Shown piece by piece: positions 20,289-64,000 of a stretch of DNA of 64,000 bases. The translations under genes and the position numbers were made by a program. The notes under the pieces were generated by a model. That model searched no databases. It saw nothing but the letters and a program-made list of their open reading frames with translations, and had not been told where the DNA came from. The stretch's first letter is position 1. Each line of letters starts with the position of its first letter. Source of the stretch: an uncultured Ignavibacteria bacterium (lineage in GTDB: Bacteria; Zixibacteria; MSB-5A5; CAIYYT01); contig CAZNWJ010000004.1 of the NCBI GenBank assembly GCA_964576925.1, positions 55,218 through 119,217 on the forward strand. Reading direction: 5' to 3'.

Positions 20289-20292
20289 GGCG

Positions 20293-28892: not shown

Positions 28893-28893
28893 A

Positions 28894-32187: not shown

Positions 32188-32189
32188 GC

Positions 32190-33587: not shown

Positions 33588-33594
33588 GGCCCCG

Positions 33595-34551: not shown

Positions 34552-35911
34552 TGTAATCATCGCCGGCGGAGGAATCTCCGGGCTGGCGACGTTGCACTAC
34601 TTGCGGCGCAACAAGCCGCAACTTCGCGTCAGACTGCTCGAGGCCGAACCGCGTTTAGGGGGCACGATCGGCACCGATCGGATCGACGGCTACAGTTTCG
34701 ACTGGGGTCCAAACGGATTTCTCGACCGCGAGCCGCTGACGCTGCAACTTTGCGAAGAACTAGGGCTCAAGGATCAACTCGAGCGCGCTAACGAAAGTGT
34801 CAATGCGAGGTTTATCCTGCGCGGGGGAAGACTTCGGCCGGTACCAATGTCGCCTCCAAAATTCCTGATGTCGGATATTATCAGTTGGCGCGGCAAGCTG
34901 CGGATCATGCGCGAGCCGTGGGCGAAGCCGCGGCCGGACGGAGTCGACGAATCGATTTACGATTTTGCGAAACGCCGGATCGGTCAGGAGGCCGCTGATT
35001 ATCTGGTGCAGCCGATGGTGTCGGGGGTCTACGGCGGAGTGGCGTCGAAGCTGTCGCTGCAGTCGTGTTTCGCGATCATGCGCGAAATGGAAGACGAGTA
35101 CGGCTCGCTGTTCAAGGCGATGATGGCCAAGGCGAAGGCGGCGCGTGCGGCCGGGAAGAAAAGCGGCGGGCCGGCAGGACCGGGTGGGTGGTTGACCTCG
35201 TTTCACGGCGGACTCTACCGCGTGATCGAGCGCTTTGCCGAGTTGTACAGCGGCAATATCCAGTGCTCCAGCCCGGTGAAGTCGGTCGCCCGATCGGGCG
35301 AGTCTCTGCGCGTCGAAACTGCAGATGGAACCACACTTGGAACTCGGCATCTTGTCCTGGCAACGCCTTCATACGTCGCTGCAGATGTTGTCAGGAATCT
35401 GTCGTCAACCCTGCACGATGCTCTCGGTCGAATCAAATATGCGCCGATCGCGGTCGTGTGTCTTGGCTATGATGCCGCGCAAGTGAAGAGCTCAGTAGAA
35501 GGGTTCGGATTTCTGGTACCGCAGAAAGAGGGACGACGAATATTGGGATCGATCTGGACTTCGTCGATCTTTGCCGAACGCGCGCCGCAGGGCAAGGTGC
35601 AGTTTCGCACGATGCTGGGCGGCGACGGCGATCATGATTCGATCAAACTCGATGACAATAAACTGACCGAATTGGCGACGAGCGATCTGGCTGGGATCAT
35701 GGGCATCAGCGGCGAGCCGGAGACGGTCAAGGTCTACCGCTGGCAATATGGGATACCGCAGTATCATATTGGGCATCGCGCCGTGATGGACACTGTTGAA
35801 GGGGAGTTGAAGCGGCTGCGGCAGGTTCACCTCGCCAGCAATGCCTATTTTGGTATCGGGCTGAATGATTGCGTCAAGCAGGCTTGGCGCGTCTATCAGA
35901 AAATCGACTGA
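34538..35911 (+). CDS. hemY: Protoporphyrinogen oxidase (FAD-dependent, HemY-type)
   Basis: Rossmann motif YDVIIAGGGISGLATLHYL. Amine-oxidase fold. Last gene of the heme operon. Confidence 0.85.
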   Translation: MSEYDVIIAGGGISGLATLHYLRRNKPQLRVRLLEAEPRLGGTIGTDRIDGYSFDWGPNGFLDREPLTLQLCEELGLKDQLERANESVNARFILRGGRLRPVPMSPPKFLMSDIISWRGKLRIMREPWAKPRPDGVDESIYDFAKRRIGQEAADYLVQPMVSGVYGGVASKLSLQSCFAIMREMEDEYGSLFKAMMAKAKAARAAGKKSGGPAGPGGWLTSFHGGLYRVIERFAELYSGNIQCSSPVKSVARSGESLRVETADGTTLGTRHLVLATPSYVAADVVRNLSSTLHDALGRIKYAPIAVVCLGYDAAQVKSSVEGFGFLVPQKEGRRILGSIWTSSIFAERAPQGKVQFRTMLGGDGDHDSIKLDDNKLTELATSDLAGIMGISGEPETVKVYRWQYGIPQYHIGHRAVMDTVEGELKRLRQVHLASNAYFGIGLNDCVKQAWRVYQKID

Positions 35912-43893: not shown

Positions 43894-44622
43894 CTACTTC
43901 AGCAGCAGCAATTTTAGACTGTGTTGTTTGCCTCCGGCAATAATTCGACAGAAATAGACGCCGGATGCAGCCGCAGCACCGGTTTCATCGCGACCATCCC
44001 AGGAAAACTCATGAGGACCGGATAACAATAGCCGCCGCTGGAGAAGGCGAACCCTGCGGCCGCTGACATCAATTATCGAAATGTCAACAGCAGCCGATGC
44101 GGAGAGGTTGAAACTGATAGTCGTAGCCAAATTGAAGGGATTAGGAAATGCAACGAGTCGCATTTCGGACAGTGAATTCACGTCAACGGCATATTCAGTC
44201 GATAGCGGTTGCGGGTGCAGATAGAACGTGTACTCAGTGGGCCCAAAGGTGAAATCGAAGTCGTCTGGACATCCCAACTGATCCCACTTGTAACTGACAA
44301 TTGTGGTATCGTAGCCTTGCGCAGTAGCATAATAGTGTACATATCCGCCAACAGGTCCTGAGGGATAGTACAATGTGCAACAATCGGCGATGGTGAAACG
44401 ACCCTCTGCATCAGTCAGGGCAAACAGTTCGCCATTGAGATTTCCGCATCCCCAGCATTGGGAGTACAAGCTGACGAGGGCGCCTTCGATGGGTAGAGAA
44501 TCCCGATAGTCGAGCACCTGCCCGGAAAGACCATTGTTGATGAAACACCCGGCTGACGCTGATGATGCTGATACCAATAGCCCCAACAGCCAGAAACAGA
44601 ACGCAAACTTGGATTGCCGCAT
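43894..44622 (-). CDS. Secreted protein with a CarbopepD_reg-like N-terminal domain and a T9SS C-terminal sorting domain
   Basis: Signal peptide. GQVLDYRDSLPIEGALVSL...TDAEGRFTI. CTD FPNPFNLATTISFNLS...GVYFCRI...KLLLLK. Confidence 0.7.
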   Translation of the reverse strand: MRQSKFAFCFWLLGLLVSASSASAGCFINNGLSGQVLDYRDSLPIEGALVSLYSQCWGCGNLNGELFALTDAEGRFTIADCCTLYYPSGPVGGYVHYYATAQGYDTTIVSYKWDQLGCPDDFDFTFGPTEYTFYLHPQPLSTEYAVDVNSLSEMRLVAFPNPFNLATTISFNLSASAAVDISIIDVSGRRVRLLQRRLLLSGPHEFSWDGRDETGAAAASGVYFCRIIAGGKQHSLKLLLLK

Positions 44623-48301: not shown

Positions 48302-48814
48302 TCAGAACGGCGAGAAACCGGCGCCAGACCAGTACTCTCCCTTTAGCTCTTCCTGCTGACGCAACAGCGCATTGTAATGGCCCGCTTCCCACTCTGCCAG
48401 CTCCCCGAAGAATTTGCGCGCTTCAGGTTCGATAGCCGTCTGCGCCTGTTCTTGATAGAACTTGATGGCATCGCGTTCCAGTTGAATGCCGATCGCCAGC
48501 GCGCTCATCTCGAAGTGAGCGTCGCGGATGCGTTGTTTGATGCTGGCTGTGAAGATGGGAGAATCGCCGGCGAAAGCCACACTGTGCCCGAGGCGGGCGG
48601 TGGGATTGAGTTTACCGGTCTGCAAGAGGGAATCATAGTGGCTCTTGAGAAACCCGAGATGCTCGAGTTCTTCGTGAGCGAGTTGCTCGAATGCGGCCTT
48701 GCCCTTGGGGTCCTGCGTCGTATTGGCGGCCATCATATAGAAACTGTGCCCTTCACGCTCGGCCATGGCAGCCTTGAGCAGAGCGTCGCTGAGCGGGGAT
48801 TGATTCGATACCAT
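48302..48814 (-). CDS. Rubrerythrin-like ferritin-fold diiron protein (no rubredoxin domain)
   Basis: Two E-x-x-H diiron motifs (EELEHLGF and EWEAGHY) in a four-helix-bundle arrangement. Confidence 0.8.
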   Translation of the reverse strand: MVSNQSPLSDALLKAAMAEREGHSFYMMAANTTQDPKGKAAFEQLAHEELEHLGFLKSHYDSLLQTGKLNPTARLGHSVAFAGDSPIFTASIKQRIRDAHFEMSALAIGIQLERDAIKFYQEQAQTAIEPEARKFFGELAEWEAGHYNALLRQQEELKGEYWSGAGFSPF

Positions 48815-49063
48815 GTCGGCTCCTGAACAATTGACTACAAGTCCAAGTTATCGATCCCGGCGCGCGAATCAAGCCGAATCGCGCGGGCTAAAACAGCCAT
48901 TTACGAATCAAACCTTGCCGTTCGCGTAATCCGATTGACCATTGGAAAGCTGCAACCGTCTCCCAGCCTGAGTACAACGAATTCTGCGACCGATGGAGGG
49001 TTTGTCAGCACAGCCTTCGCCCGGTCTTCATTCCAGCCGCTATCCCTTTTTAAGGAGAGGAGC

Positions 49064-51103
49064 ATGCGCCACCTTAGTCAAAAGCGATTTGCCTCGAACG
49101 CCGTCATGATTGCCGCCTTCTGCCTGGTCTGGGCAGCGCCAGCCGACGCTCAGACAGCATTCACGAGAATCACCGATGTCGGCAACCCGGTTGTTTCCGA
49201 CGTTACCAACCAAACCTACACTGGGTGTGCGTTCGTCGATTACAACAATGACGGGAATCTCGATCTGGTTGTTGTCGATCCGAACCAAACCAAGCTCTAC
49301 AAAGGAGATGGCACGGGAGGATTCACCCGTATTACCAGCACCCCCATCACGACCGGGACGTTCTTCGCGCTGGGGACTACCTGGGCGGATTACGACAATG
49401 ATGGTGACCTTGACTGCCTTCTGGCGGGCACCGGCGGAAGCGCCCTCTATAAGAACAACGGCGATGAGACGTTCACCCAGGTCTCGGCGAGCCTGATGGG
49501 GACTACCGACCTACGCGGCTGGAGCCCGGCCTGGGGCGACTATGACAGCGACGGCTATGTCGACCTGGTGATCACGTTTCCCACAGGATTCGTCGGCAAC
49601 CCACAACGGCCGAACCGGATGCTCCGTAACCAGGGCCCGCCCGATTACGCCTTCGAAGTGATCGACACCGGCGTTATCGTTACCGGGCTCAAGCCGTACA
49701 CCTCCGGCAACTGGGCCGATTACGATCTCGATGGCGACCTCGACTTCTTCATCGGCAGCGGCCCGGCCTCGTCGGTTTCTGGACTGGATGATCTTTACAA
49801 GAATCTGCTGGTCGAAACCGGAGTCCCTGGATTCGAACGAATCTTGCAGGCGCCGATCGCGAACGACCCGGGCGATGGTCAGGTGTGGAACTGGATTGAT
49901 ATCGACAACGACATGGACTTGGACGCCTACCGCACCAACTGGGGCGGCGTGGCCATCGGCTTGCGCAGTAATGATCTCTATGTCAACAACGGCGGAACTT
50001 ACACCGAAGTGGGCGGCGAGGAGATCGTTGACGATCAGACGGTGTCGCTGTCGCAAATCTGGCAAGATTTCGATAACGACGGCGATTTGGATTGCTATAC
50101 GGTTAACATCGGCATGAACAAGTACTACCGCAATGCGGGCGGGACGTTCTTTGGTGATTTCATGGGAGACCATGTCACGACCAGCCAGCAGGGATCGGGC
50201 GGCACCGCCGGCGATATTGACAACGACGGTGACATGGACATCTTCGCGGTGGCTTCCGGAGCGAACAAGCGTCTTCTCCTGCGCAATGACTACGCGGGTG
50301 CAAATGGCTGGCTCAAGCTCAAACTGGTGGGTCAGAAATCCAACTGGGCGGCAATCGGGGCGCGGGTCTGGATCAAGGCCACCATCGACGGCGACTCGGT
50401 CTGGCAGACGCGCGACATCTCGGCACAAAACACCTTCCTGGGGCACAATTCTTTTGAGGTACACTTCGGCCTGAAGAACGCATCGGTGGTCGAAGCTCTG
50501 CGGATTGAGTGGCCGTCGGGCATTGTCTTCGATACTACGATGGTAGGAATCAACCAAACGCTGACGTTCATCGAGAGTTGTGAGGACGGCGATGGCGACG
50601 GCGTAGGGTGTCTGGACAATTGCCCGTCGGTCGCCAACGCTTCGCAAGCGGATACGGATGGCGATTTCATCGGCGATGCTTGTGACAATTGCCTGAGCGT
50701 CTCAAACCATGAACAGGCCAATTCCGATGCCGACAGCCTCGGTGATGCCTGCGACAATTGTCCGGCAGACGCCAATAACGACCAACTGGATTCCGATAGC
50801 GATGGTGTTGGCGACGCTTGTGACAATTGCATCGATGTGGCCAACCCGGGTCAGGAAGATGGCAACAGCAACGGCGTTGGCGATGCCTGCGACTACATCT
50901 GCGGCGACACCGATGGCAACAGTATCATCACAATCTCGGATGCCGTCTACCTGATTACCTACATCTTTGGTGGCGGTCCGGCGCCCGACCCGGTGATTGC
51001 CGGGGATGCGGATTGCAATGGGATCGTGACGATCTCCGACGCCGTGTTCCTGATAACCTTCATATTCGGCGGCGGCCCGGCGCCTTGCACCAGTTGCCCG
51101 TAA
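49064..51103 (+). CDS. Secreted CRTAC1-like protein: FG-GAP/VCBS beta-propeller repeats, an UnbV/ASPIC domain, thrombospondin type-3 repeats and a dockerin-like C-terminal module
   Basis: AAGGAGAGGAGC RBS and a signal peptide. Repeats of the type W(A/G)DYDNDGDLD. The UnbV-like block ANGWLKLKLVGQKSNWAAIGARVW. TSP3 repeats CDNC...D.D.DG.GDACD. C-terminus [29 protein letters not shown]...[29 protein letters not shown]. Confidence 0.75.
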   Translation: MRHLSQKRFASNAVMIAAFCLVWAAPADAQTAFTRITDVGNPVVSDVTNQTYTGCAFVDYNNDGNLDLVVVDPNQTKLYKGDGTGGFTRITSTPITTGTFFALGTTWADYDNDGDLDCLLAGTGGSALYKNNGDETFTQVSASLMGTTDLRGWSPAWGDYDSDGYVDLVITFPTGFVGNPQRPNRMLRNQGPPDYAFEVIDTGVIVTGLKPYTSGNWADYDLDGDLDFFIGSGPASSVSGLDDLYKNLLVETGVPGFERILQAPIANDPGDGQVWNWIDIDNDMDLDAYRTNWGGVAIGLRSNDLYVNNGGTYTEVGGEEIVDDQTVSLSQIWQDFDNDGDLDCYTVNIGMNKYYRNAGGTFFGDFMGDHVTTSQQGSGGTAGDIDNDGDMDIFAVASGANKRLLLRNDYAGANGWLKLKLVGQKSNWAAIGARVWIKATIDGDSVWQTRDISAQNTFLGHNSFEVHFGLKNASVVEALRIEWPSGIVFDTTMVGINQTLTFIESCEDGDGDGVGCLDNCPSVANASQADTDGDFIGDACDNCLSVSNHEQANSDADSLGDACDNCPADANNDQLDSDSDGVGDACDNCIDVANPGQEDGNSNGVGDACDYICGDTDGNSIITISDAVYLITYIFGGGPAPDPVIAGDADCNGIVTISDAVFLITFIFGGGPAPCTSCP

Positions 51104-51240
51104 GATGACGAGCGGTCTCCTCACCAGACCGTTCAGCACGCAATACCGGTGGCGTAGGACCGCCACCGGTGTTTGTGCCCGCAGTACGTCAACCGTGATT
51201 TTTGTTAGACAATCGCCGGTGTTTTCCCGTTTAAGTTGAT

Positions 51241-52434
51241 ATGGACAATTCTCCGTCAACCATAGATACCAGCGAAAGGCGCAGCGCCGCCCTGGAACTC
51301 TACCGGCGCTTGCTGCCGTCGCCAATCCTGCGGTGGTTGGCAGCGATTGGCCTCTGGCTCGTGGTCGCGCTGGGTTCGGCGACGCATTGGTGGTTTTTCC
51401 CGCAGGGAAGTTACCCCTACACGTGGTGGGAATTGGTCGCTGCCAAGAGCGGCGTCTGGTTGCTCTGGGGCGCGCTCGTTCCGCTCATGTTTGCGGTGGC
51501 AGCGCGTTTTCGTCTTGAAGTCGGCTTTCGCTTGCGCAGCGCCGCCGTGCTGACTGCCTTCGGCATCGTCTTGACTCTTGCCTATATTCTTGGCTACACG
51601 TTTGTGGTGCTGTCCGTCATCAGCGAACCCACGAGTTACGGAATTCGCCAGCTTTGGGACTTCATGATCACGATGCACTCGACGTGGTATTTTCTGGCGT
51701 TTTGGGTGGTGGTCGGATTTGAGCACACGGTATCGTACCACCGTCGTCTTGCCGAGCGCGAGCGGCAAGCCGAACAATTGCGGACGCAGTTGGTCGAGGC
51801 GGAACTGGAGCGCCTCAAGGGACGGTTGCAGCCTCATTTCTTGTTTAATACTCTGAATACGATTTCTTCGCTCGTCTTGAGCGACCGCAAATCGCTGGCT
51901 TACGACACGCTTGCCGACCTTGCGCACCTGCTGCGGCTGAGTCTCGACCGCAGCGACGAGCAGTTTGTCACTCTCGCGGCAGAGATGGAGTTTGCGCGAT
52001 TGTATCTCAACTTGATGACGCGGCGCTTCCCCGATGCGCTGGATATCAAATACGAGGTGGACGATTCCTGCCTCGACGCGGCAGTACCGAGCCTGATCCT
52101 GCAGCCGCTGGTGGAAAACGCCGTGAAATACGGCACCAGCGACGGTGCCGGTTGGGTGCGGATCAAGGCCTCCCGCAGCGACGACTGGTTGCATCTGGAG
52201 GTCGTCAATCCCATCGGCCGCAGCGAACCGATGGAATCGGAGAACGGGGGACGCGGGCTGCTCTACCTGCGAGAACGCCTTGAATGTCTCTATGACGGCG
52301 CGGAAGGGCTCTTAAAGGTCGAGGAGACTAACGGTGAGTTCGCCGTGCAACTGATACTGCCATGGTCAAGACTGGAAAGGGATTCGGCGAGTGAAGTCAA
52401 GCTCGGTCAATACAATCCGCGCTCTGGTCGTTGA
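51241..52434 (+). CDS. LytS-family sensor histidine kinase (membrane-bound; internal His_kinase domain plus HATPase_c)
   Basis: Multi-TM N-terminal sensor. PF06580-type block LQPHFLFNTLNTISSLV. C-terminal ATPase. Confidence 0.85.
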   Translation: MDNSPSTIDTSERRSAALELYRRLLPSPILRWLAAIGLWLVVALGSATHWWFFPQGSYPYTWWELVAAKSGVWLLWGALVPLMFAVAARFRLEVGFRLRSAAVLTAFGIVLTLAYILGYTFVVLSVISEPTSYGIRQLWDFMITMHSTWYFLAFWVVVGFEHTVSYHRRLAERERQAEQLRTQLVEAELERLKGRLQPHFLFNTLNTISSLVLSDRKSLAYDTLADLAHLLRLSLDRSDEQFVTLAAEMEFARLYLNLMTRRFPDALDIKYEVDDSCLDAAVPSLILQPLVENAVKYGTSDGAGWVRIKASRSDDWLHLEVVNPIGRSEPMESENGGRGLLYLRERLECLYDGAEGLLKVEETNGEFAVQLILPWSRLERDSASEVKLGQYNPRSGR

Positions 52435-53227
52435 CGACGAAAAACCGGCGCGGGAACTGCTCGTGCAGCTCCTGGCGGGAGAAGCGGATTTCGAGATCGT
52501 CGGGGAGTGCGCCAGCGGCCGCGAGGCGATTGCCGCAGTCAACAAACTGCATCCCGACATAATGTTTCTCGACATTCGCATACCCGGGCACGATGGCTTT
52601 GGCGTTCTCGAGCGGCTGGGCAAAGCCGCGCCGGCCGTGGTGTTCGTGACTGCATATGATGAATATGCGGTCAAGGCGTTCGAGTATCATGCCTTCGACT
52701 ACCTGTTGAAACCGTTCCGGCGTGAACGACTGGCGCAGACGCTCTCGCGCTTGCGGCAGGAATTGCAGCGGCCGCCAGGACAGCGGCAGGCGCCTCGTAT
52801 CCGGGAATTACTGCAATACTGGGATCACACGTCTCAGACTGCGCCGCCAACGCCCAACAATCCCGGATTTCTTCAGCGAGTCTTTGTCAAATCGGCGCGG
52901 CACTCGCTCTCGATTGAAGTCTCCCACATCGATTGGATTCATTCCGTCGATCACTTCGTACAGATCTACGCGCGGGGGAAAAGCTACATGCTCTATTCCT
53001 CGATTGGCGCACTCGAGGATTCACTTGATCCTGCCTCGTTTCTTCGCATCCATAGAACGACGATTGTCAACCTCAGGTCAATCAAGGAATTCCGCCTGGC
53101 GGCCCTCGGCAAGTGCTACGTGATTCTCAAGGACGACTCCGAACAAGCCGTGAGCCGCAATCGGCGCGGGGCGTTGCGCGATCGGCTGCGCCAGCTGGTG
53201 CAAAAGCCCGCGACCGTCACGAAATAG
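52391..53227 (+). CDS. LytTR-family response regulator (receiver plus LytTR DNA-binding domain)
   Basis: Receiver domain ALVVDDEKPARELL...D. LytTR domain RVFVKSARHSLSIEVSHIDWIHSVDHFVQIYARGKSY. GTG start overlapping the kinase gene. Confidence 0.85.
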   Translation: MKSSSVNTIRALVVDDEKPARELLVQLLAGEADFEIVGECASGREAIAAVNKLHPDIMFLDIRIPGHDGFGVLERLGKAAPAVVFVTAYDEYAVKAFEYHAFDYLLKPFRRERLAQTLSRLRQELQRPPGQRQAPRIRELLQYWDHTSQTAPPTPNNPGFLQRVFVKSARHSLSIEVSHIDWIHSVDHFVQIYARGKSYMLYSSIGALEDSLDPASFLRIHRTTIVNLRSIKEFRLAALGKCYVILKDDSEQAVSRNRRGALRDRLRQLVQKPATVTK

Positions 53228-53390
53228 CCGGTCGCAGCGCGCCAAAGCAGGCGCGGAAATCCCGAAATTAGACCTTCCGTATTACGTTGCCTCGCGGCTA
53301 CGTCTGCAGATATATTACCTCCCGAAAGAATGCTAACCGGCGCCGGGCTGTCGGTCGCGACATTGACCCGGAAATAGTCGAGGTCCCAAA

Positions 53391-54344
53391 ATGAAATCAC
53401 ATCTTCGCACGATGCTCGCCGTGGTTCTGGCGACGCTCACTCTGTCATTGTCGGGTTGCGGAAAAGGCAAGAATGACGCAGCACAACAGGAAGGTCAACC
53501 TCTTGCCGCCAAGATCAAAATCGGCGTCAGCCTCTTGACTCGCACACACCCGTTCTACCAGGATTTGGAAGCGGGAATGCTGGAAGCGGCCAATGCCAAT
53601 GGCTACGAATTGCTGGTTACAGCAGGCGAATTTGACGTTGCCCGGCAGAAGGATCAATTGCAGGACTTCATCGTGCAGAAGGTGAATGCGATTGTCGTCA
53701 GTCCCTGCGACTCGCGCTCGATTGGCACGGCGATTCAAGCAGCCAATGACGCCGGCATCCCGGTCTTCACCGCCGATATCGCCTGCCTGGCGGAGAATGC
53801 CAGGGTCGTTACGCACGTGGCCTCTGACAACGTCGCCGGTGGTCGCCTGGCTGCCCAGGCACTGGCCAAGGCGCTGGGCGGGCAGGGCAAGGTGGCGATC
53901 ATAGACCATCCGGAAGTGGAATCGGTCATCCAGCGCGTCAGCGGTTTCGAGGCTGAGATCGCTGCGACACCGGGGATCCAGATCGCGGCGAAACTCACCG
54001 GCCGCGGCGTCAAGGATCAAGCGATGCGTACCGCGGAAGACGTTCTCCAGTCTCATCCTGATCTCGCCGCCTTCTTCGGCATCAATGATGATTCCGCGTT
54101 GGGAGCGCTTGCGGCAGTCGAGAAGGCCGGGAAACAGGGCAAGGTGGTGATCGTTGGATTCGATGCCGTGCCCGAGGCGCGTGAGGCGATCAAGGCGGGA
54201 AAGATCTTCGCGGACGTCATCCAGCAGCCGCGCGAGATCGGCATGCAGACTATCGAAGCGATCAAGATTTATATGGCAGGCGGTCAGGTTCAACCGACGA
54301 TCCTGATCCCGTGCGGTTTGTTCACGCAGGCGGATGCTCAGTAA
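53391..54344 (+). CDS. Sugar ABC transporter periplasmic substrate-binding lipoprotein (CUT2 / RbsB-like)
   Basis: Lipobox LSLSGCG. Type-I periplasmic binding fold (IGVSLLTRTHPFYQDLEAG...). Confidence 0.85.
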   Translation: MKSHLRTMLAVVLATLTLSLSGCGKGKNDAAQQEGQPLAAKIKIGVSLLTRTHPFYQDLEAGMLEAANANGYELLVTAGEFDVARQKDQLQDFIVQKVNAIVVSPCDSRSIGTAIQAANDAGIPVFTADIACLAENARVVTHVASDNVAGGRLAAQALAKALGGQGKVAIIDHPEVESVIQRVSGFEAEIAATPGIQIAAKLTGRGVKDQAMRTAEDVLQSHPDLAAFFGINDDSALGALAAVEKAGKQGKVVIVGFDAVPEAREAIKAGKIFADVIQQPREIGMQTIEAIKIYMAGGQVQPTILIPCGLFTQADAQ

Positions 54345-55848
54345 TTCTGCCGACGTAGGCGATCCTGGTACGCTGGAGATCCTGTTAAGCGCCGCCGGAA
54401 TCCAGAAGGCTTTCCCCGGCGTTCAAGCGATCGGTAGCGGCGAGTTGGAACTCCGCCGCGGCGAGATTCATGCGCTGGTCGGTGAAAATGGGGCAGGCAA
54501 GAGCACGCTGATCAAGGTGCTGACGGGAGTCCACCAGCCCGATGCCGGAACAGTTTCATTGTCGGGCCAGAAAAAACGTTTCAATTCGCCTGTCGATGCC
54601 CATCGCAACGGTATAACTGCGATCTATCAGGAGCTTTCGCTGGTGCCGAACATTTCGGTATCCGCCAACCTGTTCCTGGGTCGCGAACCCACGCGCGGTG
54701 GGCTGTTGCGAAGTGAACAGGAAATCAGGGCCGCTACCGAGGTCCTGGCTCGACTTGGCTTGACACTTGATGTGCGCCGCCCGGTCGGCGAATTGTCGAT
54801 CTCCGAACAACAACTTGTCGAAATCGCCCGCGCATTGATTACCGATGCCAGAATCATCATCATGGACGAACCAACAGCGGCATTAACGCCCCGTGAAGTC
54901 ACAAGGCTCTTCGCTATATTGCGCGGGTTAACCCGGGGTGGTATCGGCATCATCTTCGTCAGTCATCGGCTGGAAGAAGTGCTCGCGATCTCCGACCGCG
55001 TGACGGTCATGCGGTACGGATTCACGGTCGCCACCCGGCCTACAGCGGAGCTGTCCCAGAGGGCACTGATCGAGCTCATGGTCGGTCGTGTGCTGGAAGA
55101 CGAGTTTCCGCCGAGCAATTCGCAACCAGGCGCCACACGTCTTTCTGTCCGCGGACTTTCCGGCGATCGGGTGCATGATGTCTCGTTTGACGTGCACTCC
55201 GGCGAGATTCTCGGTATCGCCGGGCTGATGGGCGCCGGGCGCACCGAGCTGGCACGGCTGATCTTTGGCGCCGACCGGCGCAGTAGTGGCAAGTTTCAAC
55301 TTGATGGTCGAGCGATAGTCCCGTTCACGCCGCGCGAAGCGATCAGAGCCGGTATCGGCCTGTTGAACGAAGACCGCAAACGGCAGGGACTGGTGCTGTG
55401 CGCACCTGCCGTCGACAGTTTCGCGCTGACGAGTTATCCCAAATGGTCGCGTTTTGGATTGCTAAACCTGAAACGCCTGGGAGAGTCGTTTCAGCGGCAT
55501 GTGAAATCACTGGCGATCAAGATCGCGCATCCGCTTCAGCGCACGGAATTCCTTTCCGGCGGTAATCAACAAAAGCTCCTGGTGGCGCGGTGGCTGGAGA
55601 CCGATTCGCAGGTGCTCATCTTTGATGAGCCGACGCGCGGCATCGATGTCGGCGCGAAGTACGAGATGTATGTGATTATCCGCCGGCTTGCGGCAGCGGG
55701 CAAGGCGATCATCCTTATTTCATCTGATCTTCCGGAGATTCTCGGAATGTGCGACCGTGTGTTGGTCATGAAAGCCGGGCGGATCGCCGGCGAGGTCAGC
55801 GACATGAAATCGGCCACCCAGGAAATGATCATGGCATTGGCGGTATGA
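54334..55848 (+). CDS. Sugar ABC transporter ATP-binding protein with duplicated ABC domains (CUT2 family)
   Basis: Walker A GENGAGKST. Two LSGG-type signature regions and two Walker B regions. About 500 aa, typical of RbsA/MglA-like ATPases. Confidence 0.9.
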   Translation: MLSNSADVGDPGTLEILLSAAGIQKAFPGVQAIGSGELELRRGEIHALVGENGAGKSTLIKVLTGVHQPDAGTVSLSGQKKRFNSPVDAHRNGITAIYQELSLVPNISVSANLFLGREPTRGGLLRSEQEIRAATEVLARLGLTLDVRRPVGELSISEQQLVEIARALITDARIIIMDEPTAALTPREVTRLFAILRGLTRGGIGIIFVSHRLEEVLAISDRVTVMRYGFTVATRPTAELSQRALIELMVGRVLEDEFPPSNSQPGATRLSVRGLSGDRVHDVSFDVHSGEILGIAGLMGAGRTELARLIFGADRRSSGKFQLDGRAIVPFTPREAIRAGIGLLNEDRKRQGLVLCAPAVDSFALTSYPKWSRFGLLNLKRLGESFQRHVKSLAIKIAHPLQRTEFLSGGNQQKLLVARWLETDSQVLIFDEPTRGIDVGAKYEMYVIIRRLAAAGKAIILISSDLPEILGMCDRVLVMKAGRIAGEVSDMKSATQEMIMALAV

Positions 55849-57236
55849 CTCAACGCGGCGAAGAGAACGCGCTCAAGCGCCTGCTCCGCGACTACGGCAT
55901 GCTTCCCGTCCTGCTGCTGCTCTGCATCCTCTTCTCGATCCTCACGATCAGGGACCAGACAGTCAGCGGCGAAGCCGGCGCGGCGCAGATCATCGAGAGA
56001 CTCAGTGGCGAACCGGCGGATCAGCGCGGTTTGCTCGTGGTTACATCCGAAGGCAAAGCCGAGATCGATTTCGCTGAGTCGTTTAAGCGACTGGCGGAAT
56101 CACAAGGCTGGGTCGTGCACAGCGTCACGGGCGACCCGGCGGCAGTCCGCGGTGCCTTCGCCACAATTGACTCGACCGCTTCTCGCGAGTGGATAGTCGT
56201 TACCAGTTCAAACTATCGGCCATTGGTGTCGCAGATCGCGGCACAATTTCCATCGCTCAAAGACAGCCGAATCGAAAGTCCGACCGGCAGACGCTGGCCG
56301 ACGTTTCTCCTGGCCGAAAATCTCCGCAACGTCGCCAACCAGATCACGGTAATTGCCATCATCGCCATCGGCATGACGATGGTGATTATCACGGCAGGAA
56401 TCGATCTCTCGGTCGGCAGCTTGATAGCGTTGTCGGCGGTCGTCATTGCCTGGGTAATCGAACCGCTGGGCGGTGCAGGGGCCTCTGCCGGTGGCGTGCT
56501 GCTGGGCGGGATGGCAGCCGTCCTGGCCTGCGCCGTCATTGGGGCATTCAGCGGTGTGATGATCACCTCATTTCGCATTCCTCCGTTTATCGCGACGCTG
56601 GCAATGATGCAGGTTGCGGCCGGCCTCGCCTACATTGTCTCGCAGGGCAAACCGATTTACCAACTACCGGATGGATTTGTCTGGCTCGGACGCGGCGTCG
56701 ATCCGCTGCTGGGGATTCCGGTGGCTGTTGTCCTGATGTTTGTCATGTATTTCCTCGCCTGGGTCGTGATGGAGCGGTCGGTGCTGGGGCGGCACATTTA
56801 CGCTGTAGGCGGTAACCCCGAAGCAGCCCGATTGGCCGGGATCAGGGTGAATCGTATCCTATTATTTGTCTACACGCTGTGCGGATTGCTGGCGGGACTC
56901 GGCGGCATCATCATGGCGTCGCAATTGAAAAGCGGTGCGCCGACTTACGGTCTGACCTACGAGCTGTACGTCATTGCTGCTGTGGTGGTCGGTGGTACCA
57001 GCCTGAGCGGTGGCGAGGGAAGGATTTTCGGCACGTTGATCGGCGCGTTCATCATTGGCGTCATTCAGAATGGAATGAACTTGACGAATATCGAAAGCTA
57101 CACACAAAAGGTGGTGTTGGGACTGGTCATTTTGGCTGCGGTCTTGTTCGATCGCCTTAAGCAGCGCGGATTCAAAAAGCGCGCAGCTCTGACGAAGAGC
57201 GGACCACCTGAGGAGAAGATTGCTGATTTGGGATAG
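55847..57236 (+). CDS. Sugar ABC transporter permease (BPD_transp_2) with a ~150-aa N-terminal periplasmic extension
   Basis: ATGA start/stop overlap with the ATPase gene. The C-terminal ~320 aa form a typical RbsC-like 8-10 TM permease core. The N-terminal TM helix plus a ~150-aa soluble segment is extra. Confidence 0.85.
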
Positions 57237-57251
57237 TGGGAAGGAGATTTA

Positions 57252-60200
57252 CATGAATCGCGGGATCATTATGGCACTGTGCGCCTTGTGCTTGTTGACA
57301 ACACAAGTCGTTGCCCAGCCGCCGGCTTCAACGCCGCGACTGAAGAAGCTCGGAGTGGTCGGCACGGCGCATCTGGACACGCAATGGCGCTGGACGATCA
57401 AGAATACAATCGAAGAGTATATTCCAAACACGCTGCACGATAACTTTAAGTTGCTCGAGATTTATCCCGACTATGTCTTCAGCTTTGAAGGATCGTTTCG
57501 CTACATGCTGGCGAAGGAATACTACCCTGCGGATTACGAGCGCCTCAAGCAGTACATAGCCGCCGAACGCTGGCGGGTCGCGGGAAGCTGGGTCGATGCA
57601 GTTGATGTCAACATCCCGTCATTCGAATCGCTGGTGCGCCACGCACTCTACGGCAACGGTTTCTACAAGCGCGAATTCGGCAAGCAGAGCTACGACATTT
57701 TCATGCCGGATTGCTTCGGCTTCGGCTACGCACTCCCTTCGATTGCAGCGCACTGCGGGCTCAAGAGTTTCTCCACTCAAAAACTGACCTGGGGGTGTTC
57801 GGTTCCGGTGCCGTTCTCGATTGGAGAGTGGCAGGGTGTTGACGGTTCGACTGTGCTCGCAGGACTGAAAACCGGCAACTATGTGGCGAAGTTTTCCGGC
57901 GATCTGTCGCGGGACACCGTGTGGACGAGAGAGATCGACGCGCTTGGCGAGGCGAGCGGCTGCTACGCTGGTTACATCTACTTCGGAACCGGGGACGTCG
58001 GCGGCGCTCCGGAATCGCTGTCGGTCGATTGGCTCAGCAAGTCGATTCACAGCGACGGCCCGGTGCAGGTGGCCAGTATCGGGGCCGACGATTTGCCGAA
58101 ACTGGTGAGGGAATTTCCTGAGGCCAAGCTTCCGCGCTTCAATGGTGAGTTGGTTATGACGCGGCACGGCGTGGGCTGTTACACTTCTCAAACTGCGATG
58201 AAACGCTGGAATCGCCGCAATGAACTGCTGGCGGACGCAGCCGAACGGGCCGCAGTCACGGCGAGCCTGTTGGGCGGTTACTCGTACCCGCGCGAACAGC
58301 TCGAGCGCTCGTGGGTGCGCTTTCTCTGGCATCAGTTTCACGACGACCTGACAGGAACCTCGATTCCCGAGGCTTACGAATATTCGTGGAGCGATGAACT
58401 GCTGTCGCTGAATGAGTTTGCGAACATTCTCACATCGGCAGTCGCGGCAGTTACGCCGGCGCTTGATACGCGCGGTGACGGCGAAAGTTATGTCGTCTAT
58501 AATCCGCTCTCGGTCAACCGCCAGGATGTTGTTGAGGTAGCTGTAAGTGAACAACTGGGAGAGAATGACCCGGTACAAGTCGTCGGACCGGATAACAAGA
58601 TCGTGCCCAGTCAGATCGTTCGCGAGGCGGATGGAACAAAAAAGGTTGCTTTCCTCGCCAGCGTCCCGTCGGTTGGCTTTGCCGTTTACGATGTCCGCGC
58701 CGGTGAGGGTTATACACAGGCTCAGGGTGTCACAGTAACCACCTCGTCTTTGGAGAACGAGAGATACATCGTCAAACTCAACGAAAACGGCGATGTCGCA
58801 TCGATCTTCGACAAGCTCGCCAAACGCGAACTGCTGGCGCAGCCGATCGAGTGGCAGTTGATCTTCAACAAGCCGCGCCAGTGGCCGGCCTGGGAGATCC
58901 AGTACGAAGATCTACAGGCGGGTCCCCGCGGGAAAGTCGAGGGAAGACCGCAAATCGAGATTCTGGAATCGGGAGCCGTGCGCGGCGCACTGCGCATTAC
59001 GCGACAGCACGGCAACTCGACCTACTCGACAACGATTGTCCTGGCTTCGGGTGCAGCGGGCGATCGCATCGACTTCATCAATGATGTCCAGTGGGCGGAA
59101 AAAGAGACGCTGCTTAAAGTGGCTTTCAAGCCGAGTCTTGCCAATGAGCAGGTTACCTATGATCTGGGTCTCGGCGCCATTGAGCGTGGAATCAGTACTG
59201 ACAAGAAATACGAAGTCCCTGGACACCAATGGGCTGATCTTACGGCAACCGACGGGTCGTATGGTATCACGGTTATGAATGACTGCAAGTACGGCTGGGA
59301 TCATCCCGATGCCGGTACTCTGCGACTGACTTTGGTACACACGCCTGGTGTGTTCGATTCCTGGAGCTGGGTCGGCGATCAGAGTTCGCAGGATCTCGGC
59401 CGTCACCATTTCACATATTCGATTGCCGGGCACCAGGGCACCTGGCGTGAATCTGATATCGCCTGGCAGGCCGCGCGACTAAATCAACCGTTAGCCACAT
59501 TTGCCGTCCCTCAACATCCGGGAGTACACGGCAAGAGTCATTCGCTGCTTCGTGTCGAAGGCAGCGGAGCTGTCATGGTAAACGCGATCAAGCAGGCTGA
59601 GTTGTCTGATGAATTGATTATCAGGGTCAAAGAGCTTGCCGGCAGACCGGCAGAGAAAATGACGCTGATATTCAATCATCCGGTGGTGTCGGCGCGGGAA
59701 GTCAATGGACAGGAGGAGCCTGTCCAAGAGGCAACAGCGCTTAAGAACAAAGTGGAGTTTTCTCTGACGCCGTACCAGCCCAAGGCCTTCGCCGTGCGAT
59801 TGGGGCAACCACGGATGAGAGCGGTCAGTTCGCTCACATCGATGCCGATCGCACTCAATTACGATCTCGATGGAATCTCAGGCGATCAGAATCGCACCGA
59901 CGGAAAACTGGATCGCGACGGCAATACGTTGGTCGCGGAGTTGCTGCCGGACACGCTGACTTTTCGCAGTGTCCGCTATGTTTTCGGGCCGAAGGCCGAC
60001 GGCCAGAATAACATGGTTTCCTGCTCCGGACAGCGGATTGAACTTCCGCAAGCCGCGAGTCGGGGATGGTCGCGCCTACACTTGCTGGTCCTGGCGACCG
60101 ACGGGCCGGCAGAGGGAACCTTGACCATCGAAAGTACAACCGAGACGATTATCAAAAATGTCTCCCTGTACGATTATTCCGAGCCGATTGGTCAGTGGAA

Positions 60201-61176
60201 CAATCGGATGGTCAATGGTCGGATGGTGACGACAGCCGAAGAGATCCTCCCGGCCTACATCAACCAAACACCGATAGCTTGGGCTGGGACTCATCGGCAC
60301 ACAGGCAACGGCAAGAACGATATCTACCGATTCACCTACGTCTATGAACAGAGTTTCGAACTTCCGGCGGGCGCCCAGTCGGTGGTTTTGCCCGACAATC
60401 CGCAAATCAAGTTGCTGGCGGCCTCGGTCAGCGGACCGGAGCATGATCAGGTAGCAGCCGTCACGGAACTCTACGATGCAGCGTCAACTTCGCTGGCGCG
60501 CATCGGCGCAACTGAGACAATCTTCATCGATTCAACGCTGGCATCGATGTATAGCCCGATGCCGGGTGCGAAAGTTCATTACACACTCGACGGCAGTGAG
60601 CCGACAGCGGCATCACCCGTCTTTTCAAGTGCCGTGGCATTGACGGGATCGACCACGATCAAGGCTCGGGCATTCGATCGCGACCAAGTCGGCGGCGCCG
60701 TGACCACACTCGCCGTGAAGAAGCTGATTCCGCGCCCGGCCGTGACTGCGGATGGACTCAGGAAAGGATTGCATTGCCGCTATTATGAGGGGGAGTGGCA
60801 CCGATTACCCGATTTCGACACTGTGAAAGTCGTGCGCGAGTTCACGGCAGAATCAGTCAGGATTCCAAGCACCGCCCGTCCCGAAGACTATGGGTTGGTA
60901 TTCCGCGGCTACATCGAAGTTCCGGCTGACGGAATGTACGAGTTCGGCATCAGCTCCGACGACGGCAGCAAATTGTGGGTAGCGGATACGCTCGTCGTCG
61001 ACAATGACGGACTACACGGTGAAGGCGAGCTTGCTGGAAAGGTTGCGCTCAAGAAGGGCCTGCACCCGATCGAAGCGCGCATGTTCCAGTGCAAGGGCGG
61101 ACAGGGATTGAATCTGTTCGTTACCGGGCCTGGACTGCCGAAGCAGGAAGTGGGCAAGGGGATGATTTTTCATTGA
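57252..61176 (+). CDS. Secreted GH38-family alpha-mannosidase with C-terminal accessory domains, including a PA14 domain
   Basis: GGGAAGGAG RBS and a signal peptide. GH38 N-terminal catalytic region (GTAHLDTQWRW, DCFGFGYALP). A Fn3/CHB_HEX-like segment. C-terminal PA14 (RYYEGEWHRLPDFD...GMYEFGISSDDGSKLWV). Confidence 0.85.
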
Positions 61177-61342
61177 GCGAGCGGCAGTAATTGCCGGGAC
61201 CGATTGAAAGATCATTGAAAGCGCTCGCGCAGCGTGCGAAAGAACAGAGCGGGTCGCCGAATGCAGCGACCCGTTTTCTAATCCATGCAAACCGGAATCA
61301 TCCTTGCATCGCGCCGACGCCGAGTCCCGGGATTCTACCAGC

Positions 61343-64000
61343 TTACGGACACGCCGCACAGGGCACCGGCCCGCCGGCGAAGATGTAATTGATTAGATAC
61401 ACAGCATCGGAAATCGTCACTATGCCATTGCAGTCTCCGTCACCCGCGGGCAACGGATTCGGCGCCGGACCGCCTCCAAAGATGTAGTTGATCAAGTAGA
61501 CGACATCGGAAATCGAAATAATGGCTGAGCCATCGGCATCGCCGCAAACAGATGAAGGCAAGGCCATGATGAACGGCGAAAGCGAGCCAGTTACTCCGCA
61601 AATTCGGTTGTTGTCAGTGTCGAGGGAACTCGTGATATCGACCCATGAATCGCCGTCGTAATGGAAAAGTGTTAAGTCCAGTTCGCTACCGCCCCCGAGG
61701 TTAGCTGAATCGTACAGGAAGCAGACTTCGATCGTTCCCGAGTACGGCGCGGTCGTTGTCAGGTCGAAGTACAATTCGGGCGTACTGGGGACTATCTGGT
61801 ATCCCGAAGGCGGATTTGGACCTATTGTACCGGCCGCTACTGAAGTCTCGCCATCAGTTGAGACCTCGGCAAAGGTGACTGTGAGGCTGTCGCCCAGGGC
61901 AACCATGACATCGGCGCCAGCCGGTGTATTCCCGCAGGCGGCAGAACCGGCCCCAATCAGCTGCCCACAAGAATTGTTGGCAGGCGCGCAAGGCGAGGTG
62001 CTGCTGACCCGGTAATCTCGGGCGGGCAGATCGCAAAACACTGGATCAGCAGAGAAGTTGTCATTCACCCCATTTTGGCCAGCCAAACAGGCGGTGAAAT
62101 CTGCCGGCGTGTTGCCGAAAATATTCGAACAAGTTACGGTCAGGCCGCCTTCATCGCAAACCGCAACATTTCCACCCTCATTGAAGGCAATCACGCATTC
62201 GACAAGGTTGACAACGCCATCTTCTATGAGCAGGACACTCGCGTCAGCGGCAGGATGGGGAAGTAGGAAGTTTCGAGTGAAGGTGGATTTTGTGACAGTC
62301 ATGCTTCCAGGGTCTGCGGAATACAGCGCTCCGCCGCCTTGGGCGGCGTTGGAATCAAAGACACAACCCAAAACCGTCATTTGCCCGGCATTGAATAACG
62401 CGCCGGCAACATCCGCATGGTTCCCAACAAACCGACTGTTGGTGACTTCGACGATGCACCCTTCGAAGACTCCCAAGGCAGCTACGTACGTGCCGAAATT
62501 CCCTTCAAAGTGAGAATCGCGGACGGTGAGCCGGGCGCCCGCTGAAACGGCAATTGCACCGGCAACGGCAAGCGAATACCCGTTGTCTCTGAAGGTACAC
62601 CGTTCAAATGTCGGCCACGTCGTGCCGGCGCCGCTGTTTTGGACCGAGACCGCACCGCCTTGTCCGATCGCGAAGTTGTTTTCGAAGACACAATCTCGAA
62701 ACTGCGGCCGCGCGCCATAATCGATGTGGACTGCGCCGCCCTCGTGGCCGAAATTCCCCGCCAACGGTGCTGCGCCGTTGCGGATGGTCAGGCCCGAGAC
62801 CACCAGGTTGCTGTCCTCGCTCGACGACACAAACCTGAAGGCTCGATGCGGATCCCCTTCGCTCCCCTGGCAGTCTATGATTGTCGCAGCTGCCCCCTCG
62901 CGGCCTGTAAGCGAGACTTTTTTGTTCGAGAACGTGATGTCGCGGTTTCCGGCGCCGGTATATGTACCGGGCGCCAGCATGATCTTGTCAAAACTGTTCG
63001 CGAAATCAATTGCCGCCTGGAGAGTGCCGAACTGCTCCGGAACCGACAACTCACACAAGCGGGGGTCAATCTGCTCTTCAAAACTCTCGATGAGAAAACT
63101 CACGATGTTCGGGCCATAGTCATATCCGTCAACGAGAGCAGCACGTAGTACCTGCTCGCCACCGCTGGGGATATTGAATTCTCCGAATGTCAGCAGGATC
63201 GACACGTCGCTGCCGCCGGTGATATCTGCCGAGTTTGACGACTTCATTTCCTTGTAGGCATCGCCGTCCCTGAGACCGCCATAGGGATAGATCAGACTCG
63301 AGTTTAAGATCGCCCGCAAATTGCGATCGCTGCTGCAGGGCGTTAAATTCACAAGTCCAAACGCCGTGGCGGGGCCGCCCGTGTTTTGAATCCTGACAAA
63401 GTGATTGCCGGCCTCAACGATCGCCTCGTCCGTGACCGGACCGGTAGTGATGTCCGCATCCGCGAAGATGCCGACGGTAACCGCCACCGGCGTTCCACAC
63501 TCGTTACGAACCCGGTATTCGGCTTCAATGAACGAGCAGCTGTCGGGGATGGTGGGACTGTAGCCGTACTTATAGATGACGTCCCCGTGAAAGCGCGCAT
63601 CCTTTGTCGCAAAGCGAAGGCCCTGTGTCGTGCGGCCATAGGCGTCAACGTCGGTAACAAACCTGTCGGCGTAGAGAAAATCGTCTTGAGAGTGCAAATC
63701 CATGTAGACAGTCGTGTCGCTGCCGTCAACGACTCCTAGCAGCAGCGAGCCGCTGAGGTAGTATGCTCCGCTGGGATCAACGAGAGACTCGTAGCCCCCG
63801 CCGAGTCCCGCAGTCGGCGGCGCCTGGAGTGAGAAGCACCCGGTTCCGATGCTCGTAAACGCCGAGGTAGGATAGTCGTGAACGATCTGAACCGTGATGG
63901 GTACACGCAGGGTCGTCCCATCCGGCGGAGAAAATGTCAAGATGAGAGTATCGGAAAGATCCGTGAGATCACACGCCGACGCGGCGCTTCCAGCATCGAA
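61343..64000 (-). CDS. Secreted right-handed parallel beta-helix (PbH1) repeat protein with a dockerin-like C-terminal module; the 5-prime end may run off the window
   Basis: Repeated N..G..G.A beta-helix rungs (CVFENNFAIGQGGAVSV, CTFRDNGYSLAVAGAIAVS, SRFVGNHADVAGALFN). C-terminus [31 protein letters not shown]...[29 protein letters not shown]. The ORF is still open at position 64000. Confidence 0.7.
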   Translation of the reverse strand, partial: FDAGSAASACDLTDLSDTLILTFSPPDGTTLRVPITVQIVHDYPTSAFTSIGTGCFSLQAPPTAGLGGGYESLVDPSGAYYLSGSLLLGVVDGSDTTVYMDLHSQDDFLYADRFVTDVDAYGRTTQGLRFATKDARFHGDVIYKYGYSPTIPDSCSFIEAEYRVRNECGTPVAVTVGIFADADITTGPVTDEAIVEAGNHFVRIQNTGGPATAFGLVNLTPCSSDRNLRAILNSSLIYPYGGLRDGDAYKEMKSSNSADITGGSDVSILLTFGEFNIPSGGEQVLRAALVDGYDYGPNIVSFLIESFEEQIDPRLCELSVPEQFGTLQAAIDFANSFDKIMLAPGTYTGAGNRDITFSNKKVSLTGREGAAATIIDCQGSEGDPHRAFRFVSSSEDSNLVVSGLTIRNGAAPLAGNFGHEGGAVHIDYGARPQFRDCVFENNFAIGQGGAVSVQNSGAGTTWPTFERCTFRDNGYSLAVAGAIAVSAGARLTVRDSHFEGNFGTYVAALGVFEGCIVEVTNSRFVGNHADVAGALFNAGQMTVLGCVFDSNAAQGGGALYSADPGSMTVTKSTFTRNFLLPHPAADASVLLIEDGVVNLVECVIAFNEGGNVAVCDEGGLTVTCSNIFGNTPADFTACLAGQNGVNDNFSADPVFCDLPARDYRVSSTSPCAPANNSCGQLIGAGSAACGNTPAGADVMVALGDSLTVTFAEVSTDGETSVAAGTIGPNPPSGYQIVPSTPELYFDLTTTAPYSGTIEVCFLYDSANLGGGSELDLTLFHYDGDSWVDITSSLDTDNNRICGVTGSLSPFIMALPSSVCGDADGSAIISISDVVYLINYIFGGGPAPNPLPAGDGDCNGIVTISDAVYLINYIFAGGPVPCAACP

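Follow-up and report, generated by a model that had tools for sequence, protein, structure and literature searches.

A widespread four-gene alpha-mannosidase and importer cassette and a neighboring LytTR two-component system as two probably independent modules in a Zixibacteria-like genome

In the polysaccharide utilization loci (PULs) of the Bacteroidota, a dedicated locus couples a glycan hydrolase to uptake, and SusC/SusD loci are the hallmark of that phylum. In Gram-positive N-glycan and mannoside systems, oligosaccharides are imported via CUT1-type transporters, and hydrolysis is completed inside the cell. Alpha-mannosidases of the Ams1/MAN2C1 type are eukaryotic enzymes located in the cytosol or the vacuole. 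Here, we describe a locus that resembles each of these in part, found in a 64-kb stretch of DNA (the window, by which we mean the whole stretch) from a Zixibacteria-like metagenome-assembled genome (MAG). It encodes a CUT2-type ATP-binding cassette (ABC) importer followed by an exported alpha-mannosidase of glycoside hydrolase family 38 (GH38) and lies next to a two-component system with a LytTR regulator. A first-pass annotation of the window had read all of this as a mannoside locus under LytS-LytTR control. In our comparison with related loci, the importer and mannosidase genes hold together as a genuine functional unit, and regulation of that unit by the adjoining pair is unsupported. Judging from these sequences, the locus probably consists of two independent conserved modules, module A (48302–53227, with the two-component system and a CRTAC1-like gene) and module B (53391–61176, the importer-mannosidase cassette), which are neighbors only in the present genus and were juxtaposed by chance.

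Gene and domain calls were based on a list of open reading frames (ORFs), Pfam, NCBIfam, and reading of the translations, and every gene named by the first-pass annotation was present in the claimed order and on the claimed strand (Table 1). The four genes of module B encode a solute-binding protein (SBP), a fused double ATPase, a permease, and the GH38 enzyme. Their packing is tight: the SBP and ATPase genes overlap by 11 nt, the permease start codon overlaps the ATPase stop codon (ATGA, from 55845), and a gap of 16 nt separates the permease and GH38 genes, which indicates one operon. With a type I binding-fold SBP, a double ATPase of ~500 aa, and a BPD_transp_2 permease in a single operon, the transporter has the composition of a CUT2 ABC importer. 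It resembles RbsBAC of Escherichia coli and the other CUT2 systems (AraFGH, AlsBAC, and YtfQRT-YjfF) in its Peripla_BP_4 SBP, its double ATPase, and its single permease, and the ATPase scores ~530 bits against the AraG and RbsA models, under both NCBIfam equivalog cut-offs. It differs from them in that the SBP is a lipoprotein in which four ribose contacts are altered and invariant, the permease carries an extra 115-aa periplasmic Rossmann-like insertion, and the four-gene unit has no rbsD/rbsK-type sugar-kinase or mutarotase gene and ends in a GH38 gene.

When one genome per species was scanned, 80 loci with full-length GH38 relatives (44–89% identity) were obtained, and these were compared by tblastn with the window proteins and then by clustering of all their ORFs; below, L001 denotes the 89%-identical relative, and other L-numbers denote further comparison loci that were fetched. 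In about 50 of the 80 loci, a CUT2 ABC set lies directly upstream of the GH38 gene on the same strand. The SBP is of the close type in about 45 of these co-directional loci, being 66–98% identical to that of the window (~70% outside L001), and this close-type cassette occurs in MAGs labeled Zixibacteria, Eisenbacteria, Acidobacteria, and others. In three loci of the Planctomycetaceae, the transporter set is more distant (SBP identity of 30%), and five loci of the Phycisphaerae have their three transporter genes in a divergent arrangement. The linkage between GH38 and transporter is kept across at least four phyla and two gene arrangements, and SBP identity holds near 70% where GH38 identity drops to 44–50%. 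That a complete CUT2 importer and the GH38 enzyme belong together, as had been claimed, is borne out by start and stop codons that overlap or nearly abut and by the recurrence of the set in about 50 of the 80 loci. No conserved regulator or other partner stood beside the cassette, as no further ORF cluster occurred in more than 9 of the 80 loci. Literature searches found no prior account of an SBP-ATPase-permease-GH38 cassette and nothing specific on Zixibacteria with a mannosidase or a glycoside hydrolase. Wherever a source label is given for GH38 homologues that are 50–89% identical, it reads candidate division Zixibacteria or Zixiibacteriota, and because of these names we assign the window to a Zixibacteria-like MAG and not to the Bacteroidota.

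An exact-sequence look-up of the GH38 product returned no match, and a homology search was used instead, giving more than 120 full-length homologues. Pfam recognizes Glyco_hydro_38N (130 bits), Alpha-mann_mid (59 bits), Glyco_hydro_38C (131 bits), and 38C2 (39 bits), along with a CHB_HEX_C_1 and a PA14 domain, in a protein that begins with a signal peptide. Both the domains and the metal-binding and nucleophile motifs are those of family GH38, with AHLD, MPDCFG, and QFHD lining up with the HxD, PDxFG, and QFHD motifs of Ams1. The nearest solved structures are 7vqo, 6lz1, 7ufs, and 5jm0 (E values of 1e-52 to 1e-70), and the Streptococcus GH38 structure 2wyh follows at 7e-16. With Ams1/MAN2C1 proteins as by far the best sequence matches and the catalytic motifs aligned, the product is predicted to be an Ams1/MAN2C1-like alpha-mannosidase. 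It differs from those enzymes in being bacterial, in having a Sec signal peptide, and in its C-terminal extension of ~450 residues, within which lie CHB_HEX_C_1 and PA14. The earlier description of a secreted GH38 enzyme with a PA14 domain stands in all but its length, which is 1,307 aa rather than 1,308 aa. A signal-peptide-like N-terminus is present in 118 of 120 GH38 homologues.

Similar pairings of hydrolysis and uptake are known from other bacteria. In Gram-positive N-glycan and mannoside loci, of which Streptococcus pneumoniae provides an example (PMC5215778), a mannoside hydrolase is encoded together with an ABC sugar importer; in the window, however, the hydrolase is exported, and the importer is of the CUT2 monosaccharide type. 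Compared with the PULs outlined above, the window has no TonB-dependent SusC, no SusD, and no hybrid two-component regulator.

The sugar that the importer carries is less readily assigned. Automated annotation names the transporter of the cassette a ribose importer, and the best-scoring characterized relatives of the SBP are ribose-binding proteins (2ioy, 7e7m, and 1drk) and the RbsB, AlsB, and YtfQ models; identity to the Thermoanaerobacter ribose-binding protein 2ioy is ~40%. The SBP scores 154 bits against the RbsB equivalog NF007936, for which the cut-off is 337, and all of its NCBIfam equivalog scores are far under their cut-offs. Onto the PDB alignment of the SBP, we mapped the ribose contacts of the E. 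coli ribose-binding protein, which are N13, F15, F16, D89, R90, R141, F164, N190, D215, and Q235. Six of the ten are kept (F15, D89, R141, N190, D215, and Q235), and four are changed, namely N13 to H53, F16 to Y56, R90 to I130 (followed by a 2-aa insertion), and F164 to G206. These four residues are invariant in 52 of 52 cassette-linked SBPs, those of the Phycisphaerae included, and nearly all of the 52 carry a lipoprotein-type signal with its Cys. As aligned, the SBP pocket is different from the ribose-binding pocket, and it would be enlarged, since the arginine and the stacking phenylalanine are lost. An enlarged pocket and strict linkage to an exported alpha-mannosidase together make D-mannose the most likely ligand.

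Alternatively, the importer may be specific for another sugar, such as ribose, allose, fructose, or some other hexose or polyol, with the link to GH38 reflecting a shared substrate source and not a hand-off. Such a specificity would fit the ribose-binding relatives and the six retained contacts, and it gains from a literature search that found no characterized mannose-specific CUT2 SBP for comparison. However, the replaced contacts include R90 and F164 and are fixed throughout the orthologues, none of the equivalog models comes close to its cut-off, and the linkage to this GH38 subfamily persists in at least four phyla and both arrangements while the neighboring genes vary. We therefore consider another sugar unlikely and favor mannose.

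The permease has a feature that was missed by the first-pass annotation, a 115-aa periplasmic insertion between the first and second transmembrane (TM) helices (residues ~35–152; DNA 55947–56300). It is present in all of the 120 best homologues and is conserved in every close orthologue examined (from Zixibacteria, Eisenbacteria, and Acidobacteria). The divergent Phycisphaerae cassettes have permeases without it, which align to the window protein from about residue 154 onward. AlphaFold2 models the insertion as a Rossmann-like alpha/beta domain with a predicted local distance difference test (pLDDT) score of ~90. No Pfam family matched it, phmmer against 1.8 billion representative proteins returned 5 weak matches only, and Foldseek against the PDB gave no match under E = 0.1, the hits being generic Rossmann folds and binding-protein lobes only. 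One could imagine that the insertion docks the GH38 enzyme or the SBP onto the transporter, which would make the whole a coupled hydrolysis-uptake machine and a counterpart of the Sus type, with the SBP as the first mannose-specific CUT2 representative. We regard this combination as very unlikely; if true, it would mean physical coupling of hydrolysis and uptake in phyla without SusC/SusD.

What is established for module B is a conserved gene order, signals for export, GH38 motifs that are intact, and a pocket unlike that for ribose. On this basis, the Sec-exported GH38 enzyme would release mannose from alpha-mannosides outside the cytoplasm, with its CHB_HEX_C and PA14 modules likely binding glycans. 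The membrane-anchored lipoprotein SBP, which belongs to a distinct RbsB-like subfamily, would capture the released monosaccharide, and the CUT2 importer, with its fused double ATPase and single permease, would then take it up. This reading of the cassette as an exported alpha-mannosidase that would feed a mannose importer is well supported, because the Ams1/MAN2C1-like GH38 enzyme has a signal peptide and because the cassette and the SBP pocket are conserved. We infer mannose as the ligand, and likewise the natural substrate and the site of GH38 action, which may be periplasmic or extracellular. In its overall design, module B is a conventional, if uncharacterized, hydrolase-plus-importer operon of an uncharacterized subfamily.

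Module A has a different set of conserved neighbors. Its PF06580 histidine kinase and the adjoining regulator with REC and LytTR domains make up a two-component system, and the two genes overlap by 44 nt and are translationally coupled, with an equal overlap in L081, L083, and L088. Read from its translation, the kinase has four TM helices within the N-terminal 165 residues, short loops, and no periplasmic domain. Pfam found no 5TMR-LYT or GAF domain in it and scored HATPase_c at 21.5 bits, under the cut-off, and NCBIfam gave no match. The earlier label of a LytS-type kinase is thus correct as to the PF06580 dimerization and phosphoacceptor domain, the only tie of this kinase to the LytS family, and does not extend to LytS sensu stricto, from which the four TM helices and the missing 5TMR-LYT and GAF domains set it apart.

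Of the 80 cassette loci, L001 is the one in which the kinase-regulator pair adjoins the cassette; the other 79 lack the pair. In nine other kinase contexts (kinase identity of 37–61%), a CRTAC1-like gene stands beside the kinase gene in all nine, usually directly upstream and usually after a divergent rubrerythrin gene, as in the window. The CRTAC1-like orthologues are 62–80% identical and are more conserved than the kinase (45–61%). Six loci (L081, L083, L084, L086, L088, and L089) have the rubrerythrin gene (67–84% identity) upstream of the CRTAC1-like gene and on the other strand; it directly adjoins that gene in L083, L084, L086, and L089, and a gene for a 1,158-aa protein intervenes in L081 and L088. 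On the other side of the pair, the genes 3′ of the regulator vary among contexts (convergent carbamoyl-phosphate synthase, major facilitator superfamily [MFS] transporter, GTPase, and peptidase), and in four MAGs (CAZFNN, CAZKIH, CAZTYE, and CAZIBI) the regulator module and the cassette are on separate contigs. The proposal that the pair regulates the cassette does not survive this comparison, in which adjacency is confined to L001, the CRTAC1-like gene is the constant neighbor, the two modules lie apart in four MAGs, and, as set out below, the candidate binding site is elsewhere.

Two further observations concern these gene neighborhoods. In two Zixibacteria genomes, a co-directional MFS gene (Sugar_tr-like) begins ~60 nt 3′ of the kinase-regulator pair (L083, 10068–11453; L084, 10065–11450), and a transporter gene after the pair thus occurs in more than one arrangement. 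A CRTAC1-like gene located 3′ of GH38 in two Phycisphaerae loci (L038 and L052) was considered as a sign of a GH38-CRTAC1 link and rejected, because the translations show CxxCH heme-binding motifs and the gene belongs to a multi-heme cytochrome cluster.

When the intergenic regions were compared side by side, a consensus of CCRTTnnCG-N12-CCRTTCGCG with a 21-nt period emerged upstream of the CRTAC1-like gene. In the window, this candidate LytTR site is the sole match in 64 kb (0.15 expected) and scores 43 with a position weight matrix (PWM) against 11.8 for the next best position. When eight promoters were aligned, no other block was conserved, identity elsewhere being 53%. The repeat is found upstream of the CRTAC1-like gene, on the coding strand, in 10 of 10 loci (the window, L001, L081, L083, L084, and L086–L090), including L089 and L090, which were fetched later, and L090, in which the CRTAC1-like gene is oriented differently relative to the kinase. 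It was found upstream of none of 47 SBP genes. A slightly relaxed pattern gives 11 matches in 213 kb on both strands, all upstream of CRTAC1-like genes, where 0.145 would be expected, although these statistics are inflated because the pattern was derived from the same sites; it is the positional consistency of the repeat, rather than the statistics, that is real evidence. The LytTR regulator AlgR has the consensus CCGTTCGTC, and AgrA sites consist of 9-nt repeats with 12-bp spacing (PMC4064291). The half-sites of the window match the AlgR consensus at 7–8 of 9 positions (CCGTTCGCG at 8 of 9), and the site shares with AgrA sites the geometry of 9-nt direct repeats and a 12-nt spacer (PMC4064291). 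With conserved 9-nt repeats and a spacer of ~12 nt, the predicted CRTAC1-like promoter would therefore qualify as a LytTR promoter.

For module A, the gene linkage and the conserved site are established. Because the pair is linked to CRTAC1-like genes and a conserved LytTR-like site lies there, the CRTAC1-like gene is the probable target of the two-component system. The four-TM PF06580 kinase would phosphorylate the LytTR regulator, which would bind the 9-nt direct repeats at 48897–48926 and so control the CRTAC1-like gene; we infer this binding, the direction of regulation, and the sensed signal. The ORF of the CRTAC1-like gene spans 48935–51103, and its start is probably the ATG at 49064, which follows the ribosome-binding site AAGGAGAGGAGCA. 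A strong hairpin stands 3′ of the gene, and GC-rich inverted repeats were read from the sequences in the equivalent position in L081, L086, L087, and L088. The hairpin may act as a terminator or attenuator between the regulated target gene and the genes of its regulators. The window resembles known LytTR systems (AgrCA, FimS/AlgZ-AlgR, BtsSR, YpdAB, and LytSR) in its PF06580 kinase and its regulator with REC and LytTR domains, and it differs from them in that the conserved target is a CRTAC1-like (FG-GAP/UnbV_ASPIC) gene and not a transporter, an autolysin, or a quorum-sensing locus. A search for literature on bacterial UnbV/ASPIC proteins found nothing specific.

The model of the first-pass annotation was that the pair senses a sugar-related signal and activates the ABC-GH38 operon via CCCGAAA-type repeats at 53258–53378, with the dockerin-tagged flanking proteins belonging to the same locus. 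The repeats themselves exist, TCCCGAAA at 53260 and 53320 and CCCGGAAA at 53367, so that 163 nt hold three copies of CC(C/G)GAAA, two of them exact 8-mers. In favor of this model, the pair and the cassette lie side by side in one orientation, and the known LytTR systems BtsSR and YpdAB control transporter genes; in L083 and L084, moreover, the orthologous pair precedes a sugar-transporter-like MFS gene. The intergenic region 5′ of the SBP gene is nearly identical between the window and L001, which says little because these are only two close sequences. On the other hand, adjacency of pair and cassette is seen in 1 of 80 cassette loci and in 0 of the 9 other kinase contexts. Among the SBP upstream regions of 47 loci, only those of the window and L001 contain the CCCGAAA motif, which the 45 others lack; nor does it occur in any intergenic region of the loci that hold the regulator orthologues. 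With spacings of 60 and 47 nt, the repeats depart from the 21-nt LytTR geometry, no LytTR-type 21-nt repeat was found in the SBP upstream region (the best PWM score in 53200–53420 is −9.4), and the 8-mer TCCCGAAA is not enriched in the window, with 4 copies against 3.0 expected. The region 53228–53390 thus lacks the features of a LytTR promoter, and the conserved LytTR-like repeat occurs elsewhere. The kinase, moreover, lacks a periplasmic domain that could sense a sugar or dock the SBP, the cassette shows no linkage to the beta-helix gene, and dockerin tags are generic in the genome. Together, these points make the earlier model distinctly unlikely; most likely, the cassette is not under direct control of the regulator.

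Several considerations nevertheless weigh against reading the locus as two independent modules, one with a CRTAC1-like target and the other with a mannose importer: (i) no terminator was predicted between the regulator and SBP genes; therefore, co-transcription of the regulator gene with the cassette is possible, as is read-through transcription from the former into the latter. (ii) Lineage-specific regulation of the cassette is possible, because the SBP upstream region is unusually conserved with L001 and holds clustered copies of TCCCGAAA. (iii) The repeat pattern upstream of the CRTAC1-like gene was defined afterwards from the same loci in which it was counted, and it was relaxed slightly to take in L089 and L090. 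(iv) The mannose assignment is based on gene linkage and pocket differences.

The two large proteins that flank the locus, both with dockerin-like tails, had also been counted as part of it. Of their genes, the CRTAC1-like one is part of the regulator module, and the beta-helix gene stands beside the cassette in 0 of 80 loci and is not adjacent to it even in L001, where the homologue lies ~9 kb away. The beta-helix gene is cut by the end of the window, since its frame is open to base 64000, and because of this truncation its length of 865 aa is a lower bound and its apparent lack of a signal peptide an artifact. Compared with PDB sequences, the beta-helix protein had no informative relative, and its dockerin-like tail was matched weakly. 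Dockerin_1 scores 19.0 and 19.8 bits on the two flanking proteins, under the Pfam cut-off of 22.9, and reaches 24.5 and 23.7 bits in the near-identical tails of a 367-aa protein (16099–17202, minus strand) and an M28 peptidase (23544–25454, plus strand). Four otherwise unrelated exported proteins (these two and those at 49064–51103 and 61343–64000) end in near-identical duplicated dockerin-like modules, and because the tail also occurs on the M28 peptidase and the 367-aa protein, it is a general tag of exported proteins in this genome. The module looks like a general surface-anchoring or sorting tag in the lineage, and the placing of the flanking proteins in the locus is not supported.

The absence of SusC/SusD had been taken as a sign of an atypical locus. 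The large ORFs of the window include no gene for SusC, SusD, or a TonB receptor and hence no SusC/SusD locus. This absence is expected, because the organism is Zixibacteria-like and SusC/SusD are characteristic of Bacteroidota; as the cassette is also common across several phyla, the claim of an architecture atypical for the lineage is not supported.

Table 1. Coordinates of the features of modules A and B and of their flanks in the 64-kb window
Feature	Position	Strand	Details
Rubrerythrin gene, divergent from the CRTAC1-like gene, conserved neighbor in module A	48302–48814	−	Pfam Rubrerythrin 60.5 bits
Candidate LytTR site, CCATTTACG-N12-CCGTTCGCG	48897–48926	+	Two 9-nt direct repeats, ~140 nt 5′ of the CRTAC1-like ATG
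CRTAC1-like surface protein	49064–51103	+	Signal peptide, FG-GAP_3 propeller, UnbV_ASPIC, TSP3-like repeats, dockerin-like tail (Pfam)
Strong hairpin 3′ of the CRTAC1-like gene, then TGTTTGTG	51146–51169	+	−31.1 kcal/mol, z = −5.2
PF06580 (LytS/YehU-type) histidine kinase, membrane-embedded	51241–52434	+	Pfam His_kinase 77.4 bits
REC+LytTR response regulator	52391–53227	+	Response_reg 87 bits, LytTR 69 bits (Pfam)
Intergenic region 5′ of the SBP gene	53228–53390	+	Promoter-like TTGCCT-N18-TATATT at 53287–53316; repeats
CUT2-family lipoprotein SBP	53391–54344	+	Pfam Peripla_BP_4 205 bits; lipobox LSGC
Fused double ABC ATPase (RbsA/AraG-like), 504 aa	54334–55848	+	Two ABC_tran stretches
Permease, RbsC-like core	55845–57236	+	BPD_transp_2 157 bits, C-terminal part only (Pfam)
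GH38 alpha-mannosidase, 1,307 aa, exported	57253–61176	+	Pfam
Terminator-like hairpin in the gap of the convergent GH38 and beta-helix genes	61250–61273	−	10 pairs, 8 G-C
Beta-helix protein, dockerin-like tail, in neither module	61343–64000	−	Pfam Beta_helix 69.7 bits

Elsewhere in the window, Por_Secre_tail scores 41.4 bits in the protein at 3857–6361 and 26.6 bits, just under the cut-off, in that at 43894–44622. The protein at 3857–6361 supports the presence of a type IX secretion system, and because two proteins carry type IX sorting domains, two different C-terminal tags (type IX and dockerin-like) coexist in the genome. At 19170–21273, genes for a C-5 cytosine DNA methylase and, immediately after it, an HNH_2 endonuclease probably form a small restriction-modification pair. 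A contiguous run of heme biosynthesis genes at 26027–35911 encodes GlutR, porphobilinogen deaminase, ALAD, a class-III aminotransferase, and URO-D and continues with a HemN-like radical SAM enzyme, ferrochelatase, and an amine-oxidase-type oxidase.

Neither the cassette nor the regulator result overturns current understanding, and the case shows how risky it is to infer regulation from gene adjacency when one genome alone is considered. The reassignment of the LytTR system to a bacterial CRTAC1-like gene, with a concrete predicted operator, offers a handle on the function of CRTAC1/ASPIC proteins. The invariant pocket signature of H53, Y56, I130, and G206 would define a new, testable CUT2 specificity. 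The four-gene cassette is widespread: more than 120 protein clusters, at least 50% identical to the GH38 enzyme, come from at least four, mostly uncultured, phyla. If it were assigned to alpha-mannoside scavenging, metabolic reconstructions of Zixibacteria, Eisenbacteria, and Acidobacteria would be corrected.

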